IMG/VR virus record: IMGVR_UViG_2974727265_000001
Coordinates: 35,495 to 99,494 of that record
Length of the DNA: 64,000 nucleotides
DNA from: a virus
Taxonomy: Duplodnaviria; Caudoviricetes
Reading direction: 5' to 3' (one strand)
The first letter of the stretch is position 1. The number at the start of each line of letters is the position of its first letter. The translations under genes were made by a program, and so were the position numbers. The notes under the pieces are model-generated. The model made no database searches and was not told the origin of the DNA. It saw nothing but the letters and a program-made list of their open reading frames with translations. Shown here piece after piece: positions 911 through 45,600 of this stretch.

Positions 911-3900
911 ATGATTAAACAAGAGATACATCAAATCAGGGGTATGCAGAGGGACTTAACTGTAGCTAAGTTTAGTCCTGAGTTTGCTTTTGATGCAATG
1001 AATATAAGAATAACAGCCAGAGAGAATGATACTCTATTGGCTGTTACTAATGAGAAGGGTACTCTGAATATCCCTCTTCTCTCTAATGGTGAGCCTGCTG
1101 AGATACTAGGTGTAACATTAGGTTATTGTGTAATCAAGAACTACATTACTGTGTTTACTAAAGGTGATGTAGATAGGATATACAGGATAAATAGGGATGG
1201 AGATATATTCAACATTGTTACATTGTTTGAAGGTGATTTGAACTTTAATACAGACTATCCTATCCAAACTCTTGGCTCATATGAGAATGATAATATTCAG
1301 AAGGTATATTGGGTAGATGGTATTAATCAACCTAGAATGGTTAATATAGTAGCTGACCAGGGTGAATATAATAGCCCTGATAAGTTCAACTTCATTAGAG
1401 ATGTCTCAGTTAACTACACTGTGAATGTAGAGAAAGACCCTAATGGATCAGGCAGCTTTCATTCAGGTGTGATTCAGTATGCCCTTTCCTATTATGTTAA
1501 GTATGCACAGGAGAGTGCTGTATTTTATGCTTCTCCATTACTATATATTAGCCCTGAGGGTAGAGGTGGCTCACTTGAGGAGATATGTAATTGTACATTC
1601 AAGGTAACTATTAATGATGCTGATATTAACTTTGATGGAGTTAATATATACTCTATTCAAAGAACATCATTAGATGCTACTCCAACAGTTAAATTGATTA
1701 CCAGCTTACCTATTGTTAAAGGGCAGGAGCTTATATTAGGTGTACCTTATATAGGTACTGGAAGTGTAACTGGAGTTACAGAAGAGGGTCTACAGGTATA
1801 TAGGAATAATACACTCACACCTTTAAGTAATTATCCATTTACCACTGACTCTGAAGGAAATAAGGTATGGTCATTCACCTTCAATACAGGAACTGATGGT
1901 ATATTCAATGCTACTTCTGGTGTTAATATGTACAATGCCAGTTCAATGACTGTGAGAATTGGACCTACTAAGAATGAGATAACCTTTCCTACTAACACAT
2001 ATACTGATTGGAGCTGTAGATTAAGTACTTCCAAGACTATATCATTTGTAGATAATGGCAGTGTAGGTACAACTATAGACCCTACTGAGTTGTTATATAA
2101 GGGGGGTGAGGAGGTTATTCCTTATACTATTACACAGAAGGATAACACACTATTTCTTGGTAACTTGACATTAAAGAGAAGGTCTATTCCTGAAGATATA
2201 AGAGCAGAAATCAAGAACCTTAATGTAGGCTCTGGTAGTAAGAATTCAGTATATGTCAATAATAGCAATAATGCTATTTATCCATATAAAGGTTATCTTA
2301 ATCTTGATAGTCAACAGGCTACTTCTTTTAAGACAGGAGAGACATATAGACTTGGTTTAATAGCCATGCATAAGACTGGTAAGTGGTCAGAAGCTTTGCC
2401 TATCAGTGATGAAGTGATGACTAGTAGAGTCATTAATTCATTTGAGCAGTGGTATCAGTTAACACAGTTCAGTTCTCTTTTACCTGCAAGTTTATGTCAG
2501 GAGTTACTTGACTTAGACTATATAGCTGTTAAACCAGTAGTAGTATTTCCCTCATATTCAGATAGAACTGTACTATGTCAGGGTATTGCTTGTCCTACAA
2601 ACTATATTGGGGATGATAGGAAGAACAACTCTCCCTATGCCCAGTCTTCTTGGTTTGCAAGACCTAAATTATATGTAGATAAGAGTGTATATGATGTACA
2701 GGAAACTACAGTGCAAGGTACTATACCTAAATCAGGTCATGGTGATGTTGTTGGCAGCAAGACACCACAATCAAACAAGTACTCTATAGAAGTGCAATCA
2801 GCTGTAAGAGTGTTTGTAGATGAGAATATCTTCACATTCCACTCACCTGATATTGAGTTTGATGAAGCACTTAGACCATTGTTATCTAATGCTAAGATGA
2901 GGGTAGTAGGCTTAGCTAAGACTATTAGTAATGCTATTGATTACTCTATAGTTGGTGGAAACTACTTTAGGACAAGTCATACAACTAACTACCCATACTC
3001 AGTAGTAGAATATGATTATAGTAAGTTATATAATATCTATAATCCTCTAGGATATAGAAGATTAGTAGCTGCTCCATTATGGAGAGATGGTGTCATTGCA
3101 GTTAATAATAATCCTGAATCAGATGAAGTAGTTACTGATGATAGAGGTAGATTATACTCTGCACATATGACATTCCCTTGGCATAGAGATACCTCACTGA
3201 ATAATGACTTTAGAGGCTATGATGGTACTGCTATATTAAGAAAGAAGGTCATGTCTACCATGCTCTACACAAGTACAGAGTATCTTGGCTATACTAGATA
3301 TTATAACTTTGAGGAGGATAATGACACATATAGAACAGGTATTAGTGGTATAACTGTAGTAGACTCTAATGAGGTAACCATAGAGAGAATACCTGTACCT
3401 AAATATAGTACTGATTCAGAGCAAGCTGTTTATCAAGGTAACTATAATAGTGTAGTCATTAATACAGATGAGACTTCTGGTGCTATATCCAGTTATGCTC
3501 TTTATGGAGCTGGGACTAGTGAACAAGATGCTACAGCTAACTGGAACTTCTTCTACAATAATGAGTACATGGCAACTAGAACAGATGCTGGAGAATTTCC
3601 ATATCAGACTGATGGATGGATAACTTATCCAAAAAGGTTCTCAACAGATGGGGTTAGTATGAAGTACAAATCAACTGCCCATGCAGTTATAAGGTTCAAT
3701 AATAACAGGTTATATAATCCTGTGGTACTTCCAGCTATTTCTAGAGCTGACCAAGGTATTTATGGAACAGTTACTCCTAACTATCCTCCAGTATCTAATA
3801 CCATTACTATCAACTATAAGAGCAGCACTCAGCCTATAGGAGCTCTATCAGGTCAGAGGTGGTTCAAGTTAATAGGCTCAAATCAGTTCCAAGGTAATCT

Positions 3901-35490: not shown

Positions 35491-35516
35491 GTTCTCATCT
35501 TTTTTTTTTAGAGTTA

Positions 35517-38412: not shown

Positions 38413-38929
38413 ACAGTTTTCTCATGATAGGCTTCATGATATGTTTGGCTGCTTTAGCATCATCAAGTGTTCTGAAAGCAGCAAAGTTTCTGAAGTTCTT
38501 GATTCTGTTCAAATCTTTAACCTTCTTGATTTCACCATCCAGCATGCTGATAGTCCATATTTCCTTACTTCTCTCAATATGGTCTGGATACTTCTCATCA
38601 AGAACAATAGCTACCTCTCTCAGGATGATGCTACAAGCTGCTGCTGGGTAGATGTCAACTAAGTTTGCAAGATACTTATCAACATTTTCATACTTCCAAC
38701 CAATTCTTTCTGCAAGATGGTCAAGATAGTAATTAATTTCAAGATGAGTACCTTCATCAACAGCAGGTTTCTGCCATAGTTTTGCACACTCAGCAATGGT
38801 ATCAAGCAATTCAGGTGTGACTTCTAGTTCAACTTCTTTGAACCCCTCTTCAGGGTGGTACTGCAATGCTTTAACCTTGTCACCTACTGCAAAGGTATGA
38901 TGACCCCCTTCAAATACTAACTTCTTCAT
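38402..38929 (-). CDS. hypothetical protein
   Basis: 175 aa ORF in operon. Confidence 0.65.
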   Translation of the reverse strand: MKKLVFEGGHHTFAVGDKVKALQYHPEEGFKEVELEVTPELLDTIAECAKLWQKPAVDEGTHLEINYYLDHLAERIGWKYENVDKYLANLVDIYPAAACSIILREVAIVLDEKYPDHIERSKEIWTISMLDGEIKKVKDLNRIKNFRNFAAFRTLDDAKAAKHIMKPIMRKLYGR

Positions 38930-38944
38930 AATGGTTATTATTTA

Positions 38945-39619
38945 TTATTTGTACTCCTGGAACCACTGTATTGGTTCTCCATATTTGTCTTTAGTTAACT
39001 TACTTACATCTTTAAAGACTGTAGATGGCATCCTCTTTCCTATTCTAGCATAGTAGGCTGGATGCTGTTCCTCAAGAATGATATTGAATCTACCATTGAT
39101 GTATGGTTTAAATGTCCTTGCTTGTGCTCCAAACAGGACATAGATAATACCATTATTCCACTCTGATAGGTTATGAAGCAGACTACTTATAAAGGGTCTC
39201 CATAACATAGTATGACTACCAACTTTATTCATCTCTACTGTAAGTGCTGAATTTATCATTAGCACTCCTTGCTTTGCCCAACTCTCTAAAGTCTGGTCAA
39301 AGATAACACTATTATGTGGGATATCAAAATCAATGCTAGCCTCCTTAACAATTCTTAGTGAAGGAGACAAGTCATCTTCACTTGTCTCTTTCTTATTACC
39401 AAACAAGATACCTGTTGCTACATTCTTCTGTGGGTAAGGGTCTTGCCCTATCATAACTACTTTCAAGTCATTATAAGGGCAAAGTTCAAATGCTCTGAAT
39501 ATATCAGGTAAGTTAGGACATATAGGTGCTTTTATATTACCTACAATATTAGTTACCTTGTATAATTCAGTATCACTTATAACCCTCATCCAATCACCAA
39601 AGTACTCACTTAATGTCAT
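38945..39619 (-). CDS. ung: uracil-DNA glycosylase family 1
   Basis: KVVMIGQDPYP, PSL, WAKQGVLMINSALTV, SH, HPA. Confidence 0.93.
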   Translation of the reverse strand: MTLSEYFGDWMRVISDTELYKVTNIVGNIKAPICPNLPDIFRAFELCPYNDLKVVMIGQDPYPQKNVATGILFGNKKETSEDDLSPSLRIVKEASIDFDIPHNSVIFDQTLESWAKQGVLMINSALTVEMNKVGSHTMLWRPFISSLLHNLSEWNNGIIYVLFGAQARTFKPYINGRFNIILEEQHPAYYARIGKRMPSTVFKDVSKLTKDKYGEPIQWFQEYK

Positions 39620-40368
39620 ATAAGCAGGTTACCTAAAACATTATCAATGTTTTCATTAAGAAGTGCATTAAGACTGATATTAAGGTCCTCATCCTCAGGC
39701 TCAAGAACCCTATGTATAAATCTATTTAAGTCTGCTATAACTACTTCAGTTGTAAAGTCAGCAGATGCCTTACCTGCCCTTGTTCCATAGGGTACTAGAC
39801 TACCCTCATTCCCCAAGATTATAGGTATCACTTTCTTCTTAATAGCTTTATACATTATATCATCTTCCCTAAGCACCACATTTGGACTAACATATAGTAC
39901 ACCTTTATTATATACATAATATGTGTCAGTAATACTCTTAGAGCCTCTTAATACATATATGTATAATGGATTAAAATTCTCATCAAGCATTAACCCAGGT
40001 GCTCCCCAATATACTCCTCCCTTATGATTCTTAATACCATGTAGACCATAACCTAGACTTGATGTGTTAAGCTGTCTTATAGTAGATTCAGCAGTTCTGG
40101 TAGTTCTGTTCTCCAGCCTTCTAGGTAGTAAATTACATACAAACATATCAGCATCTTGTAATATCCTAGTCTCTACCATATTCCTCATAGCTACAGGTAT
40201 TTCAACTTCATTGCTATTTGACATATCAGCTACTATAGTTCTATTGAACACAGCACCCTCAAGTCCATTAAAAGCATGATTATAGGCTACAGATGTTGTT
40301 AGATAAGAGGTAGTAGTTAGGGGTCTTATAAAGTCCTCTTCCAAATATTTACCTATCTTTGCCATCAC
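39616..40368 (-). CDS. hypothetical protein coupled to the E1-like gene
   Basis: 250 aa; 4-nt ATGA overlap with the ThiF gene stop; no recognisable motif. Confidence 0.65.
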   Translation of the reverse strand: MMAKIGKYLEEDFIRPLTTTSYLTTSVAYNHAFNGLEGAVFNRTIVADMSNSNEVEIPVAMRNMVETRILQDADMFVCNLLPRRLENRTTRTAESTIRQLNTSSLGYGLHGIKNHKGGVYWGAPGLMLDENFNPLYIYVLRGSKSITDTYYVYNKGVLYVSPNVVLREDDIMYKAIKKKVIPIILGNEGSLVPYGTRAGKASADFTTEVVIADLNRFIHRVLEPEDEDLNISLNALLNENIDNVLGNLLI

Positions 40369-41375
40369 TTCTCAACTTTAAAATACATAGTACTTGCATC
40401 ATAGGAGGTCAGAAATGGTACATCTCTTGGGAAGATAGGGTTACATTGGTTAGCTACATGATTAACAAATATGTTGACCATAACAGAGCCAATCATGTTA
40501 GCCATGAATGTAGTCTGTTTATAACTACATAATGTTTCCTCAACCTCTTCATCATTAAATAACCACTCCTTAGAGTACCTCTCTATAGCACTTTCATCAT
40601 CTCCAGTAATAGCAAACACTTGAAACTCCTCTGCTGCCAGTCTACCATCAATGTATAACATAGTATCTACAGAATTACCAGCACTTATATGCATACGACG
40701 TCTATTCATCCAACTATAGAAGAATACCTTTCTAGCCTCCATATTATCAAAGCCACAAATCATAACATCTTCCTTTAAAGATGACTCATCATACACTCTG
40801 TTTCTCACAACACCCTGACTAAAATTGGAGAAGTGTGACATTATACTATATATAGCATTAGCCTTGTATTCTCCAATATGGTTACTACCATACAACTGAC
40901 CTGATAAGTTGACAGTTTCTACTCTGTCAGGGTCATACATATAAATTACATTTGGTTTCAATCTGCCAAGTAGGAATGCAACATAGCTACCAATACCTCC
41001 TAAACCTGCTAATACTATCCTTTGTTCTCTGACCTTATCATACCATTCAGCAGAACTAAATCTACTAGTAGACTCATCCACCAGAAGAGTATTAGAATTA
41101 AGAGGGATTTTATGTATATCTACCTCAGAAGTTGGACTCTCAGTTATGATCTCTTCTACAGGTTGTATAGTATCTGCATCATCCAGTTCAGCTAATACTT
41201 CATCAAGTACTGAAGCTACTTCATCAGGCAGTATATCTCCATATGGATTTAATTCCATTCCTCCAGCTTCTTCAGCTACCTCTGGTCTATCAATATGTGA
41301 ACCATCCTGAGCAACAGGGGTTTCATTTATCAATGCTTCAAACTCTTCAACAGACATAATTCTATCGTCTTCCAT
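40365..41375 (-). CDS. ThiF/MoeB/E1-family ubiquitin-like activating enzyme
   Basis: IVLAGLGGIGS nucleotide-binding loop, YDPDRVETVNLSGQLY, ICGFDNMEARK, IDGRLAAE, candidate catalytic Cys in ETLCSYKQT. Confidence 0.88.
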   Translation of the reverse strand: MEDDRIMSVEEFEALINETPVAQDGSHIDRPEVAEEAGGMELNPYGDILPDEVASVLDEVLAELDDADTIQPVEEIITESPTSEVDIHKIPLNSNTLLVDESTSRFSSAEWYDKVREQRIVLAGLGGIGSYVAFLLGRLKPNVIYMYDPDRVETVNLSGQLYGSNHIGEYKANAIYSIMSHFSNFSQGVVRNRVYDESSLKEDVMICGFDNMEARKVFFYSWMNRRRMHISAGNSVDTMLYIDGRLAAEEFQVFAITGDDESAIERYSKEWLFNDEEVEETLCSYKQTTFMANMIGSVMVNIFVNHVANQCNPIFPRDVPFLTSYDASTMYFKVEK

Positions 41376-41376
41376 A

Positions 41377-42621
41377 TTAAATTATATAATTTTCAAGGTG
41401 ACCAATCATAGATAACACATACTCATTTGCAGGTAATTGAGCTAGCTCATTTGACAATGCATTAGCTAACAAAGCTGCTTGAGTATCATCATCAACATTC
41501 AAGTAAGTCTCAGTGTAATACACAATGAACTCTACATGAGATGCAATCCAAGCCTCAAACAATGCAATGTCTGGGAATCTTGTTTTGTACTTCTCAACCA
41601 TAGCCTCAGATATTTCCTCAAGAGTACCATCAAGTGTCTCAGTTATACTGCCAGAGAGTAACTCCCTAGCTGCCTTCATAAGTACATCTTCTGGTATTAC
41701 ATAGGCAGAGTAGCCAATAGAGGCGGGCTCTTCTTCAACTTCCTTCTCCTTCTCAACAGGTGGTACTACTTCAGCTGCTTTGTTTGCTGGTATTACATTA
41801 CCTCTGCCTACAGTAGCTTGATATACAGGTGCAGGAGTCTTTCTCTCAGAAGGCCACACATAAGGGTCATCATCTCTGTAATTACCATATGCTCCATAAC
41901 CACCATAGTTATTATAACCACCACTATAAGTAACAGCAGATTTAGTCTTTCTAGCTGCTTCTGCCTTCTGCTTTTGCACCTCTTCAATTCTCTGACTAAG
42001 CTCAAGATAGGGATTAGGCAACTGAGGTCTCTCTACATCCAACATGAAGTATTCCAGTCTTTTTCTCTTGAATGTATAACTGATTGGCTGGCTAGCCTCC
42101 TGTTCATTAAAGGTAAGGAATCTAGCAGAACCTGTTGCTGTCATTTCCTCTTCTACAATCCTTGTAATAGCTGCTTGGTATGTACCTTTAGTGTCAATAA
42201 TGAGTGATAAGAAATGAGTTCTATCACTACCCTCTTCTCTAAGAGTAGCATAATCAGTTCCACTAAAGAATGCTCCCATTGTATGATGAGAATGCATAAG
42301 TCCCTGATATACATCTTCTCCAAGCAGTTCAGGATTATCAACCATATATGCAACCACATCAGGAGACATATTGAATTCAGTATAAGTACTGGTTCCAATA
42401 TCTTGTAAGATAAAGTCAAATGCAGTTATCTCAAAGTTCATCTCTTTGAAAGAACCAGTAACTTTATAGAACAAAGTGCCTGAATACTCAGTGTTTGGGA
42501 ATCTATCAAGATAGTATCTAATCTTTCTCTCAAGCTCCTCAGTTACAATTAGCTTAAATGTATTTGATCTTTTTACAAGCTCCAGTAGCTTGGTCTTCTG
42601 TATTGCTGTTTCCATATTCAA
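41377..42621 (-). CDS. JAB/MPN (JAMM) metallo-isopeptidase
   Basis: PNTEYSG Glu plus HSHHTMGAFFSGTD = JAMM E...HxH...SxxD. Confidence 0.88.
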   Translation of the reverse strand: MNMETAIQKTKLLELVKRSNTFKLIVTEELERKIRYYLDRFPNTEYSGTLFYKVTGSFKEMNFEITAFDFILQDIGTSTYTEFNMSPDVVAYMVDNPELLGEDVYQGLMHSHHTMGAFFSGTDYATLREEGSDRTHFLSLIIDTKGTYQAAITRIVEEEMTATGSARFLTFNEQEASQPISYTFKRKRLEYFMLDVERPQLPNPYLELSQRIEEVQKQKAEAARKTKSAVTYSGGYNNYGGYGAYGNYRDDDPYVWPSERKTPAPVYQATVGRGNVIPANKAAEVVPPVEKEKEVEEEPASIGYSAYVIPEDVLMKAARELLSGSITETLDGTLEEISEAMVEKYKTRFPDIALFEAWIASHVEFIVYYTETYLNVDDDTQAALLANALSNELAQLPANEYVLSMIGHLENYII

Positions 42622-43738
42622 AATTTATTACTTGCAGAATGATTCTATGAATCCATTCTGCTAATCTAACATTAATAAAATTAGAAAGATTATTATCACC
42701 TATCTGTACTTCTTCCTCTCTAATATGAACTCTCACATCCTCACCCTTAAAGGTACATACATGCTGACCCTCATATTCCAGGTATGATCTAGGTATAGTT
42801 GAGTTATCATATTTTATTACACCCTCCTCTATGATACCCCTTCTTAACAAGCCTTGTCTTAATAGGTCACCATAGGTCTCAGACACTTCTCCAGCAACAA
42901 GTTTCATGTTATACCATTCAATGAATTCATTACTGATGAATACTATCCATTCTAAGAAAGTGGTAGATATCCCATAATGATAACCATTAAAGTCAAACTT
43001 AAGCTTGTTCCTAGATATGAGCCATGTTACAAACTCTCTCACTCTAGCATTGTTAAATGCATTAAAGTGAGGTATATTGCCAACATTTGTAGATAGATTC
43101 CAGTTACTTTCACCTATACTCATTTCCTTTGAACCTACTCTTTCCAGCCTATGATATGGTCCACCACCAATAGATTCCACTTGCACATATTTGCTTAACT
43201 CAAAGCAAAATAACTGCCATCTAAGTTCATCAAAGTCTTCAGTTCTAAGTGTTAGTATAGTATCTCTAATAGGCCCTTCTCCCAGACAAGGGTCCTGAAA
43301 ACTACTGAAATCCCATGTGGGTATATCACTTACATGGCTATGCATATAGTTACTATTCAATTGGGCAGTATTATACTCAGCTCTGTTGAGAGTAAAGTAA
43401 CCTAACATCTTACCATTATAGCCAAGTTTAACCCTAGCATATAACTCCCATATATCTATAGATTGGTCATACTCATTAGTGATTGTAACCTCTGGGAATC
43501 TTACCAGTATAAATACATGGCTAGGATATAGAGCCATACTACCTGCTTCATAAATATTTACTAGGCGGCTATTCTCATAACCTAGTAAGCTAGATGCATA
43601 GTCCTCTCTGCTTACCATTTGTATATCAACAAGCTCCTCACCAAAGAAGTCACAGAAGATTTTATATATCTCCATAGGTTTCTCTATCAGTCTCTGATAA
43701 TGCTTATCAATAATAGTACTTCTATTCACTTCTTCCAT
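42554..43738 (-). CDS. prokaryotic E2-like ubiquitin-conjugating protein
   Basis: YMHSHV...PCLGEGPI matches the HxH...CLG active-site pattern of prokaryotic E2 families; located between Ubl-like and JAB genes. Confidence 0.7.
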   Translation of the reverse strand: MEEVNRSTIIDKHYQRLIEKPMEIYKIFCDFFGEELVDIQMVSREDYASSLLGYENSRLVNIYEAGSMALYPSHVFILVRFPEVTITNEYDQSIDIWELYARVKLGYNGKMLGYFTLNRAEYNTAQLNSNYMHSHVSDIPTWDFSSFQDPCLGEGPIRDTILTLRTEDFDELRWQLFCFELSKYVQVESIGGGPYHRLERVGSKEMSIGESNWNLSTNVGNIPHFNAFNNARVREFVTWLISRNKLKFDFNGYHYGISTTFLEWIVFISNEFIEWYNMKLVAGEVSETYGDLLRQGLLRRGIIEEGVIKYDNSTIPRSYLEYEGQHVCTFKGEDVRVHIREEEVQIGDNNLSNFINVRLAEWIHRIILQVINFEYGNSNTEDQATGACKKIKYI

Positions 43739-43747
43739 TTTGCTTAC

Positions 43748-43784
43748 AAAAAAAAAGAGGCTGATGATTACTCACCAACCTCTT
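43748..43784 (-). terminator. intrinsic terminator after the Ubl-like gene
   Basis: Minus strand AAGAGGTTGGTGAGTAATCATCAGCCTC followed by a run of 9 T. Confidence 0.75.
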
Positions 43785-43801
43785 ATTATTACTTGAACTT
43801 A

Positions 43802-44542
43802 TTATCTTCCCACAAATGAGAACATATCATCAATCTCACTACCGGAGAGACCTTCTTCAGCTTCAGGTTCTGTGTCACCACAGCCACCATGACCATTGCG
43901 CTCATCAGCACCATTTGCAAGTTCATCTGCTCTATCTGCAAGATCACTATAATCTTCATACAGTTCATCTTCACCTCTCAGAGTTTCAATCAAATCATGC
44001 AGGAGTTTTCTTGCTTCTACATCAACACCGGCGACAACAGTAGGAGTGATATCAGCCTGAGAAGGAGCCTCATCTACAGGAAGTGCCTCAGCTTTAGTTA
44101 CTTTAGCTGATTTGGGTTTGTTCTGCTCTGCCAGGAATACAGTAAGCTCTTTAGTGCTTACCTGAGTCGCATTCTTTTTGAACTTCTCCATAACTGCTTT
44201 ACCAAGACCCTTTGCTTTGATTTCAGCAAGGATGTTTGATCTTTCAGTACCAAGAGCTCCACTCTTGATCTTCTTGTTCTCAGGAGTCAACATGAACACC
44301 AACTCATTAGTTGTGCTTGCAGGAGTTGTACCTTTAGCAGGCACAGGAACATTAGTTGGCAACACAGACTGATCATCTTTCAATTCAGTTCTGGTTCTAC
44401 CTTCATAGAATGCCATACCTGATATGCTGATGCCGGCATTACTCATATCTCTCTTCAGCTGACCAAGAGTTTCTGCTGTTGACATGATTGTTTTCTGAGA
44501 TGACTTGTTGTTAAGAACTACAGTAATTTTTCTAGCTTCCAT
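43802..44542 (-). CDS. ubiquitin-like (beta-grasp) precursor with C-terminal extension
   Basis: Residues 1-95 show a beta-beta-alpha-beta-beta pattern (RKITVV..KTIMS.AETLGQLKRDM...LKDDQSVLP...ELVFMLT) ending KKIKSG; first gene of the E2-JAB-E1 cluster. Confidence 0.65.
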   Translation of the reverse strand: MEARKITVVLNNKSSQKTIMSTAETLGQLKRDMSNAGISISGMAFYEGRTRTELKDDQSVLPTNVPVPAKGTTPASTTNELVFMLTPENKKIKSGALGTERSNILAEIKAKGLGKAVMEKFKKNATQVSTKELTVFLAEQNKPKSAKVTKAEALPVDEAPSQADITPTVVAGVDVEARKLLHDLIETLRGEDELYEDYSDLADRADELANGADERNGHGGCGDTEPEAEEGLSGSEIDDMFSFVGR

Positions 44543-44554
44543 AATCTTTAAATT

Positions 44555-45574
44555 TTAAAATGGGATGTTTTTTAATGTTATTTCCTCTCCACTTATAAGG
44601 CTGAGAATCACCTCTTTGAACTTATTCTTATCTTGCAGGAGCTTGAATAAGTCTGATACATCTTTTGCTCCATAGTCTGGCAATACTAAGTTAGTGAATC
44701 CAGTAGATTCAGATAGTTTCAGTGCATCTTGCACCCCAGCTTCATCATTGTCCAGTAGTATATAAATCTCTTTATATCTCCTCCTTAATTCACTAACTGC
44801 TGTATCACTCATACCATAACCTTCTCCTTGAATTGCTATACAGGGTATTCCTGTATTTGCCCATATACATAAAGCATCCTTCATTGATGAACAGACTATT
44901 ATCTTATCACCTTCTTCTGGTACTTTAGTCCATAGGCTAATGACTGACCTATCATGCTTGTTACTCCACTTATAACCTTTAGTATTGAATGGCTGGTATA
45001 TCTTCAAAGTAACCTTGCCTTCCTTTCTCTCTACATAAGCATAAGCATACTTATCTGCAACAAACACATATCTGTTATTGCCCTTAATCACTATCTTATG
45101 TGATATAGGATATATATCAGCATATCTAAGCCAGTCCAATGATATACCAAATAATTCCCAGTATTCTATATCATGCTTCATCCATTCTCTTACTTTACAT
45201 TCAAGAATAGTGTCTACACTATAGTTCCTAGTATCACTTGGTCCTCTCATTTTATTGGATTTGATGCCAGTAGTGGCTATATTAGGTAAGTCTTCCCAAA
45301 TTCTGTTCAAGACTTCTTTGTAACTTACTCCCCAATATTCTCCTAACATATCCCATAGACCCCCACTTAAGTTCTTAGCTAAGTCCTTCCAATGTATTCT
45401 GATACCATCAGTACTATAAATACCAAAGGATGGTTTCCTATCCACTCTCAAAGGACTTGATATAATACAAGGAACATCACTTACACCAAAATAGTGATAG
45501 AGTATATCAAACTCACTCACCTTACAGAGTATATCACTTAGGGTTATACTAGACAAGCCACTACTAATTGCCAT
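44555..45574 (-). CDS. DNA primase (TOPRIM, DnaG-like)
   Basis: SSPLRVDRKPSFG N-terminal domain, SSMKDAL, GEG, ILLDNDEAG, AKDVSD. Confidence 0.85.
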   Translation of the reverse strand: MAISSGLSSITLSDILCKVSEFDILYHYFGVSDVPCIISSPLRVDRKPSFGIYSTDGIRIHWKDLAKNLSGGLWDMLGEYWGVSYKEVLNRIWEDLPNIATTGIKSNKMRGPSDTRNYSVDTILECKVREWMKHDIEYWELFGISLDWLRYADIYPISHKIVIKGNNRYVFVADKYAYAYVERKEGKVTLKIYQPFNTKGYKWSNKHDRSVISLWTKVPEEGDKIIVCSSMKDALCIWANTGIPCIAIQGEGYGMSDTAVSELRRRYKEIYILLDNDEAGVQDALKLSESTGFTNLVLPDYGAKDVSDLFKLLQDKNKFKEVILSLISGEEITLKNIPF

Positions 45575-45600
45575 ATATCAATTCAATTACAGGTTATTAC

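Follow-up and report, generated by a model that had tools for sequence, protein, structure and literature searches.

A candidate ubiquitin-like protein conjugation cassette in the replication module of Asinivirinae crAss-like phages

We analyzed a stretch of 64,000 nucleotides (the window) from a Caudoviricetes virus, positions 35,495 to 99,494 of IMG/VR record IMGVR_UViG_2974727265_000001. In this window, five co-oriented and tightly spaced genes on the minus strand are flanked by genes for a primase and a uracil-DNA glycosylase (UDG). They encode a 246-aa precursor of a ubiquitin-like protein (Ubl), a 394-aa E2-like protein, a 414-aa JAB/JAMM peptidase, a 336-aa E1/ThiF-family adenylase and a 250-aa protein (ORF250). 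We hold with moderate confidence that this cassette is a phage-autonomous ubiquitin-like protein conjugation cascade, in which a JAB-processed Ubl would pass to the E1 and then to the E2, because it combines a β-grasp domain whose terminal Gly is invariant, a JAMM peptidase that looks active, an E1 adenylase with an invariant Cys and a probable UBC-fold protein, likewise with an invariant Cys, all of which are strictly coinherited. An original prediction, made from the DNA letters alone, had proposed an apparently complete conjugation cassette between primase and ung. Every open reading frame (ORF) was found where it had been placed, on the minus strand, and a codon-by-codon check located all of the quoted motifs at the expected residues. 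The parts list withstood fold, motif and co-occurrence tests, with the E2 assignment depending on middling structural scores, and none of the refuting conditions that could be assessed by computation arose. Bacteroides phage DAC17 (Crassvirales, Steigviridae, Asinivirinae, Wulfhauvirus) shares 99.5% identity with the window over 4927 bases, and in its GenBank record all six genes beneath the matching region are labeled "hypothetical protein."

The genes were proposed to co-occur in related phages, and a synteny survey revealed that they do so beyond chance. Seven window proteins were compared by tblastn with 86 loci, 6 from GenBank and 80 from IMG/VR. Matches were found at all 86 loci for the JAB, the E1 and UDG, at 85 for the E2-like protein, 83 for the Ubl, 82 for primase and 76 for ORF250, in constant order; most of the missing matches concern the ends of contigs or the loci that have diverged furthest. 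This gene order is kept in the 80 IMG/VR loci and in Flavobacterium phage FpV4, whose Ubl and E2 equivalents were recognized through position and motifs, as well as in six Asinivirinae genera, among them that of crAss001, where the cassette corresponds to gp79 to gp75. The proteins differ in how far they have diverged. In crAss001-like loci, identity to the window is ~73% for UDG, ~67% for primase, ~58% for the E1, ~38% for the Ubl, ~34% for the JAB, ~32% for the E2-like protein and ~27% for ORF250. The labels that the cassette genes bear in GenBank are "thiamine biosynthesis protein," "metalloprotease domain containing protein" and "hypothetical protein."

A tblastn search of 50,697 phage records delimits the taxonomic range of the cassette. 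Residues 1-140 of the Ubl precursor matched 43 records (27 Bacteroides, 12 uncultured cr phages, Kolpuevirus, Kehishuvirus, bajarodcaudo virus 1 and Dulem virus 41). The E2-like protein also matched 43 records, with identical organism and host tallies, and the E1 matched 72, made up of the same tallies plus 29 Flavobacterium phage records. The matched records for which taxonomy was fetched belong to the Steigviridae/Asinivirinae (Wulfhauvirus, Kolpuevirus, Kehishuvirus, Kahnovirus, Mahlunavirus and Lahndsivirus), with the exception of FpV4 (Fipvunavirus) and two unclassified viruses. At this sensitivity, no record named as the prototypical crAssphage is among the matches. As judged by sequence matching, the cassette is restricted to Steigviridae/Asinivirinae and FpV4-like phages, rather than being found in crAss-like phages in general. 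Among 185,579 species genomes, a relative was found on only four contigs of metagenome-assembled genomes (MAGs), and the cassette family therefore looks phage-specific. These four contigs (L087-L090), which are assigned to Spirochaetia, Clostridium, Bacilli and Acholeplasmatales and one of which is 94 kb long, match the phage E1 at 46-57% identity; they probably represent crAss-like phage DNA that was binned into MAGs. A plasmid collection contained only ThiF proteins at 23-31% identity (E 3e-5 to 9e-4), and neither the species-genome nor the plasmid search revealed a bacterial source family.

The Ubl precursor, in which the motif ENKKIKSG(95)ALG was verified, begins with a predicted β-grasp domain (residues 1-95), to which a three-helix domain (~99-140) is attached; a disordered linker then leads to a helical hairpin (171-216) and to the acidic C terminus, SEIDDMF. 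As originally proposed, its N-terminal part folds as a ubiquitin-like β-grasp in an AlphaFold2 (AF2) model. This model, which was built from 41 diverse sequences, displays a β-β-α-β-β...β topology over residues 4-87 and a short C-terminal helix, with a predicted local distance difference test (pLDDT) score of 82.8 overall and >90 at residues 1-90, confidence being low in the linker around Gly95. The C termini of ubiquitin and MoaD align at ~88-93 of the model. Two features of a Ubl modifier, the β-grasp fold in the model and a conserved Gly closing the tail after the last strand, are present; that the Gly becomes a free, conjugated C terminus is a prediction. The precursor has 2666 homologues, and 737 representative clusters were found. 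In an alignment of 41 diverse sequences, just six columns are invariant, Gly95 among them. This Gly is retained in FpV4 at 26% identity, and the Ser-Gly motif occurs at each of the 83 loci with a Ubl match.

In the part of the precursor that follows Gly95, helices 99-110, 114-121 and 130-140 are modeled with a pLDDT of 95-98 and form a small domain that resembles HeH/SAP by eye only; residues 96-246 had no match in Pfam. The acidic C-terminal motif E-I-D-x-M-F is conserved among homologues. In four homologues of 321-337 aa (P0241, P0244, P0249 and P0251), the linker that joins the helical domain to the acidic tail contains the C-terminal domain of ribosomal protein L7/L12, which was found above cut-off in 4 of the 4 proteins tested (PF00542, E 1e-16 to 2e-8). 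A Foldseek search of BFVD returned only uncharacterized crAss-like orthologues (5 at E ≤0.001). In PHROGs, the Ubl, the E2-like protein and ORF250 match only entries of "unknown function." The GenBank start of the Ubl gene in DAC17 is 19 codons shorter than the conserved ORF (window 44486-44542), which would remove the first β-strand.

In 3 of the 83 loci, the Ubl gene is naturally split. In these IMG/VR loci, which represent two lineages (L049 on the one hand, L041 and L073 on the other), homology to unsplit relatives ends exactly at the Gly codon and is followed by Lys-Phe-stop, leaving a free Ubl of 91-92 aa that ends in KSG-KF. Immediately 3' of the Gly codon lies a NUMOD4-HNH_3-NUMOD1 homing endonuclease gene (E 4e-15, 7e-9 and 4e-5), which is intact in L049 (2047-2562), decayed with loss of its original start in L041 (2577-3050) and mostly deleted in L073 (2736-2899). 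In all three loci, the helical/acidic-tail part resumes 3' of the endonuclease as its own ORF. Since the split loci keep separate ORFs, the Ubl and tail halves can exist as separate polypeptides divided at the predicted cut site, and, as far as their sequences tell, these halves are what JAB cleavage at Gly95 would give. A group I intron was considered as the cause of the split and set aside, since Rfam gave no match at E ≤1 in the three loci, an intron type outside Rfam remaining possible. The same kind of search detects a group I intron elsewhere, in the JAB gene of another locus (L068).

The peptidase predicted to make this cut has an intact and conserved JAMM motif, in line with the original prediction. 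The 414-aa ORF contains E45 and LMHSHHTMGAFFSGTD (H110, H112, S120 and D123), the HxH...D codons lying at 42253-42294. All five residues are invariant in 6 of 6 sequences, and HxH-x7-S-xx-D is present in 85 of 86 loci. In the single exception, L068 (3314-5594), the gene is interrupted within the HxH codons by the group I intron mentioned above (RF00028, 66.4 bits, E 3e-16, at 3585-3844), next to which a 244-aa LAGLIDADG-like ORF is found on the opposite strand. The match to Prok-JAB (PF14464) falls just below the cut-off (E 6.5e-5, 23.2 bits versus 25), and the PADLOC JAB profile matches at E 0.013. The C-terminal half of the protein is variable. Translation would start at a TTG at 42621 or an ATG at 42615. 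The start annotated for DAC17 in GenBank is 49 codons shorter (window 42475-42621), which would eliminate the invariant JAMM Glu45; for both the Ubl and the JAB, alignments of homologues favor the longer starts over the DAC17 annotation.

By sequence, the E1 clearly belongs to the ThiF/E1 adenylase family. The 336-aa ORF, in which LAGLGGIGSY, DPDRVETVNLSGQ and ETLC(283)SYKQT were verified, consists of a single adenylation domain (~240 aa) preceded by a variable acidic extension (residues 1-95), and displays GLGGIGS (codons 40986-41006), DxD, NLSGQ, D210, R215 and Cys283 (codon 40527-40529). It matches Pfam ThiF (PF00899) with an E value of 2.1e-14 (53.7 bits versus a cut-off of 28.1), NCBIfam ThiF (E 2e-16) and PRTRC_ThiF (E 4e-8), and, in PADLOC, Cap2-type E1-E2 (E 5e-10) and BilD (E 1e-5). 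Its closest solved structures in the PDB are MccB (E 3e-5) and UBA5 (E 3e-4). In six phages whose identities go down to 34-37%, no change is seen in the Gly-rich loop, DxD, Lys171, Asp210, Arg215 or Cys283; GxGGIxS is likewise invariant in the E1 sequences. The candidate catalytic Cys283, which had been singled out from the window alone, was confirmed in 22 of 22 sequences and in 6 of 6 found by tblastn, a collection made without use of the motif. The N-terminal extension (window 41090-41375) varies from 0 to ~150 residues in relatives, is absent from FpV4 and Dulem virus 41, and ends in a conserved IPxNSxTLLVDExTSRFS segment that includes an invariant Arg105.

As for the 394-aa protein, which had been proposed to be a UBC fold with a conserved Cys, the Cys was borne out and the fold only in part. 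The ORF, in which YMHSHVSDIPTWDFSSFQDPC(151)LGEGP was verified, has a predicted UBC-like N-terminal domain (~8-205), with H133-S-H135 and Cys151 (codon 43286-43288), and a C-terminal domain (~206-394) with no recognized fold. An AF2 model based on 25 sequences (pLDDT 81.1) shows, in order, an N-terminal helix, a four-stranded sheet, a flap with H133-S-H135, Cys151 just before a helix, further helices and the separate C-terminal domain. Its top structural matches have modest scores; more of them are UBC/UEV/RWD chains, bacterial Cap2 and BubB complexes included, than members of any other group. YxHSH...CxG is invariant in 25 of 25 and in 6 of 6 sequences, the latter reaching down to 21% identity, and at 85 of 85 loci; the other cysteines are lost in distant relatives. 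The N-terminal domain is a probable UBC fold with an invariant Cys, an assignment that leans on modeling. The lead offered by a protein-language-model Atlas search was a viral cluster of Prok-E2_D (score 0.89). Prok-E2_D was matched in only 1 of 301 sampled genomes, and Prok-E2_B in 0 of four MAGs, where no control genome matched either. YbbR, a match of a 25-sequence profile against PDB sequences, was discarded as chance level (E 0.04).

The cassette and its flanking genes are laid out in Table 1. A 63-nt gap, with a terminator-like hairpin inside, separates the Ubl gene from the E2 gene. The remaining genes are packed closely: the E2 and JAB genes overlap by 62-68 nt, one base lies between the JAB stop and the E1 ATG, the E1 stop overlaps the start of ORF250, and the ORF250 stop and UDG start overlap in ATGA.

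Table 1. Features of the cassette and its flanks (window positions)
Feature	Position	Strand	Basis or detail
Primase	44555-45574	-	ORF; Toprim family match
Ubl precursor gene, 246 aa	43802-44542	-	ORF; AF2 model pLDDT 82.8
Ubiquitin-like β-grasp domain, residues 1-95, ending KKIKS94-G95	44258-44542	-	Gly95 codon 44258-44260
Small conserved helical domain right after Gly95, residues 96-140, motif FGKN[FY]TQ	44123-44257	-	AF2 model, conserved columns
Terminator-like hairpin, 13-bp stem then T7	43755-43784	-	Consensus scan
E2-like protein, 394 aa	42554-43738	-	ORF; predicted UBC-like N-terminal domain
JAB/MPN+ metallopeptidase, 414 aa	41377-42621	-	Prok-JAB match; JAMM motif
E1/ThiF-family adenylase, 336 aa	40365-41375	-	Pfam ThiF E 2.1e-14
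ORF250, 250 aa, fast-evolving	39616-40368	-	ORF; no family match
UDG	38945-39619	-	ORF; UDG family match

The last gene of the cassette had been suggested to encode a substrate selector, an idea that found no support. ORF250 has only 7 homologues among 5.8 billion proteins, its positional equivalents share 14-28% identity, and nothing informative was found in Pfam, PHROGs, PADLOC or NCBIfam. Its Atlas model is poor (pLDDT 0.29), and neither a family nor a fold could be assigned to it. We took as noise both the Atlas feature matches to unnamed or capsid-like viral clusters (139-148 of 256 features) and the Atlas structure matches, with template modeling scores of 0.28-0.37 for a model of that quality.

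The region is also represented in RNA libraries. In three RNA-seq runs of one study, 97-98% of sampled words were present, and the contigs cover 38900-45600 with no notable gaps, the whole cassette included. Mean contig depth, which cannot rank genes and is not a valid measure of expression, is higher for primase and the 5' part of the Ubl gene than downstream; we take the data only as a sign that the region is present in these libraries. In all three assemblies, contigs break at ~44180-44255, just 3' of the Gly95 codon, where minor-variant 60-mers are found, and a further boundary, at 43749-43755, coincides in run X2 with the terminator-like hairpin.

On the basis of its motifs, its predicted folds and the homologous systems already known, we infer for the cassette the following sequence of cleavage, adenylation, thioester relay and conjugation to targets. 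The precursor would be cut after Ser94-Gly95 by the JAB/JAMM peptidase, giving a 95-residue β-grasp Ubl and a fragment composed of the helical domain and acidic tail. The single-domain E1 would adenylate Gly95 and may load the Ubl onto Cys283, and the Ubl would then be handed to Cys151 in the UBC-like domain of the E2-like protein. With no E3 in the cassette, the C-terminal domain of this 394-aa protein would be the likeliest target-recognition module, with the Ubl being delivered to lysines of phage or host proteins. The JAB may also reverse the modification, and the conjugation system would be made together with the replication genes. A more specific version, which we put forward tentatively as a possibility, is that Asinivirinae crAss-like phages and FpV4-like Flavobacterium phages run their own Ubl signaling during replication. 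As in eukaryotic ubiquitin-ribosomal protein fusions, one precursor would give two products: a 95-residue Ubl that a Cys-based relay from E1 to E2 would attach to proteins of the replisome or the host, and a DNA-binding or L12-like effector fragment.

Several observations, the missing E3 among them, weigh against such a cascade. The Ubl tail is Ser-Gly, not Gly-Gly, and Gly95 is internal to the gene in 80 of 83 loci. Among the 150 best of the 737 representative clusters, Gly95 is never the end, all of them spanning the β-grasp and helical domains. Because the domain after Gly95 is roughly as conserved as the Ubl, an uncleaved fusion could be the functional form. In the E1, conservation of the Cys in the IMG/VR loci is partly circular, since the search pattern contained this Cys. 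Furthermore, all 86 loci have N-x-x-G-Q and none has N-x-x-R-Q, the alignment with MccB showing a change from Arg to Gly. The Arg of NLxRQ contacts ATP (phosphate), and its replacement by Gly implies that the adenylation chemistry of the E1 may be altered. At the level of sequence families, neither the Ubl nor the E2-like protein has a match in Pfam, NCBIfam, PADLOC or the PDB, the chance-level YbbR match aside. Pfam searches at E ≤10 recovered no E2 family in 25 of 25 members of the E2-like family, and no Prok-E2_D (PF14460) in the phage genome. Finally, the RNA evidence consists of contigs from one study, in which DNA carry-over is possible.

Conservation of the C-terminal part of the precursor also bears on a different reading, in which the same enzymology serves a nonprotein or self acceptor (a lipid, a nucleotide, a DNA moiety or the pathway's own proteins), or in which the cleavage would be an end in itself, setting free a DNA-binding or L12-like fragment under regulation by E1 and E2. 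The modularity of that part, with its helical domain, its L7/L12 domain in some relatives and its acidic E-I-D-x-M-F end, would fit, as would the fixation of the cassette within the replication module by primase and UDG. However, no acceptor-specific enzyme or domain was recognized, and the invariant Cys in E1 and E2 suits a protein-conjugation relay at least equally. We regard this reading as rather unlikely.

Another possibility is that the cassette is a sulfur-carrier/thiocarboxylate pathway of the ThiS, MoaD, CysO or QbsE-like type. The JAB would expose the Gly and the E1 would adenylate it, providing sulfur for a phage cofactor or for tRNA or DNA modification, while the 394-aa protein would act as a noncatalytic scaffold. 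This is improbable in our view. The E1 has no rhodanese domain and scores 60 bits against the 159-bit cut-off of the ThiF equivalog, the cassette contains no cysteine desulfurase, ThiG/MoaE-type partner or sulfur-assimilation gene, and it is always accompanied by a UBC-like protein with an invariant Cys.

The cassette could instead counter host Ubl immunity, namely the type II cyclic-oligonucleotide-based antiphage signaling system (CBASS; Cap2/Cap3), Bil or Bub, with the JAB stripping host conjugates or the phage Ubl, E1 and E2 competing or mis-tagging. This differs from the preferred conjugation cascade in role, not in chemistry. The best matches of the E1 in the defense library are indeed the Cap2-type E1-E2 and BilD profiles given above, and the E2-like protein, JAB and ORF250 diverge much faster than primase and UDG, with typical identities to the window of 32-35%, 32-35% and ~27% against 66% and 72%, a pattern known from conflict genes. 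By contrast, accessory anti-defense genes are usually patchy, whereas the replication-module position is strictly conserved over Asinivirinae genera and FpV4-like phages with different hosts, and we give a counter-defense role a low probability. Least probable, to the point of being close to dismissed, is a degenerate set whose folds were kept as structural or regulatory subunits, such as replisome accessory factors, with no adenylation or conjugation; the loss of the E1 Arg and the lack of family matches for Ubl and E2 would suit it, but the expected catalytic residues (JAMM E/HxH/S/D, the E1 Gly-rich loop, DxD, Lys171, Asp210 and Cys283, E2 HSH and Cys151, and Ubl Ser-Gly) are invariant down to 21-26% identity.

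Among known systems, bacterial anti-phage Bil has the same four parts as the phage cassette (BilA Ubl, BilB E2, BilC JAB and BilD E1). In Bil, the Ubl is trimmed beforehand by the JAB, which exposes its C-terminal Gly; an E3 is absent, and targets are presumed to be picked by the E2 (PMC11601596); preprocessing of BilA by BilC is likewise described in the accessible part of a preprint (bioRxiv 10.1101/2023.09.26.559546). However, the phage E1 is a single domain, in contrast to the IAD-AAD-CYS architecture that defines the Bil E1; its match to BilD is weak and partial, and the BilA, BilB and BilC profiles have no match. The cassette further differs from Bil in being phage-encoded and located in a replication module, and in having a Ubl with a 150-aa conserved extension.

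Type I Bub offers a parallel for the precursor, its Ubl being C-terminally fused to another protein and its JAB domain cutting right after a conserved Gly, again according to the available part of the source (PMC11601596). The fusion partner is an E2 in Bub and a helical/acidic-tail module in the phage, and JAB and E1, which are fused in Bub, are separate in the phage cassette. Moreover, Bub (6E/DUF6527) is described, in what was available, as forming Ser oxyesters with an E1 that has no catalytic Cys, whereas the phage proteins keep an invariant Cys, and a family search of the window proteins detected no DUF6527/BubE-like protein. In type II CBASS, Cap2 is an E2-E1 fusion that conjugates the C terminus of a CD-NTase rather than a β-grasp Ubl, whereas the phage E1 and E2 are encoded by separate genes. 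Matches to the Cap2 profile are confined to the E1 part of the cassette, and the family search found neither a CD-NTase nor an effector among the cassette genes.

Two further systems are carried by mobile elements or phages. In lambdoid and T1-like phages, TAPI (Ubl) and TAPK (JAB-NlpC/P60) are a known phage-encoded Ubl/JAB pairing; as described in the accessible part of the source, a conserved Gly ends the Ubl of TAPI, a linker joins it to a small C-terminal domain and the JAB is predicted to cut at the Gly (PMC1779556). TAPI/TAPK belong to the tail module and come without E1 or E2, whereas the crAss-like cassette includes both enzymes and is part of the replication module. PRTRC systems (ParB-related, ThiF-related), found on plasmids and integrative elements, are likewise uncharacterized, borne by mobile elements and endowed with ThiF-family and JAB-like members. 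They also hold Ubl-like and E2-like proteins. The phage proteins fall well short of these families, the JAB scoring 15.5 bits against a cut-off of 101.8 for PRTRC_A (E 0.009) and the E1 scoring 32.8 bits against 144.75 for PRTRC_ThiF; ParB is absent, and the other PRTRC members have no match in NCBIfam, which places the cassette outside PRTRC. Since it fits neither Bil, type II CBASS nor PRTRC as these are defined, and keeps its Cys unlike Bub, we set the cassette apart as a putative phage-borne variant of Ubl conjugation.

The architecture of the precursor is reminiscent of eukaryotic ubiquitin-ribosomal protein fusions, in which the Ubl is the N-terminal part of a precursor with a functional C-terminal partner. 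In some phage relatives, the partner even includes a ribosomal L7/L12 C-terminal domain. This likeness is architectural only, with no sequence relationship, and cleavage in the phage is only predicted.

Our literature search, the scope of which did not extend to Yutin et al. 2018 and supplements, found no description of the cassette in crAss-like phages. In the available portion of the main text of the crAss001 paper (PMC6235969), thiamine, metalloprotease and gp76/77/79 are not mentioned, and in the literature searched phages are described only as carrying a Ubl and JAB pair in tail assembly. Given the GenBank labels "thiamine biosynthesis," "metalloprotease" and "hypothetical," the present analysis also corrects the annotation of the cassette.

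Prokaryotic Ubl conjugation has recently been established as bacterial anti-phage immunity, in type II CBASS, Bil and probably Bub. If the conjugation cascade proposed here is real, a virus would be using the same chemistry, a major lineage of gut phages having a full, conserved Ubl/E2/JAB/E1 set at a constant place within its replication module. Asinivirinae crAss-like phages are among the most abundant viruses of the human gut and include the culturable crAss001 and DAC15/17. Hosts suitable for testing are at hand, DAC15/17 infecting the genetically tractable Bacteroides thetaiotaomicron and crAss001 (gp75-gp79) infecting B. intestinalis. Ubl conjugation would then be a weapon or a regulator on the viral side too, beyond bacterial defense, and the question of which proteins the phage Ubl targets would be opened.

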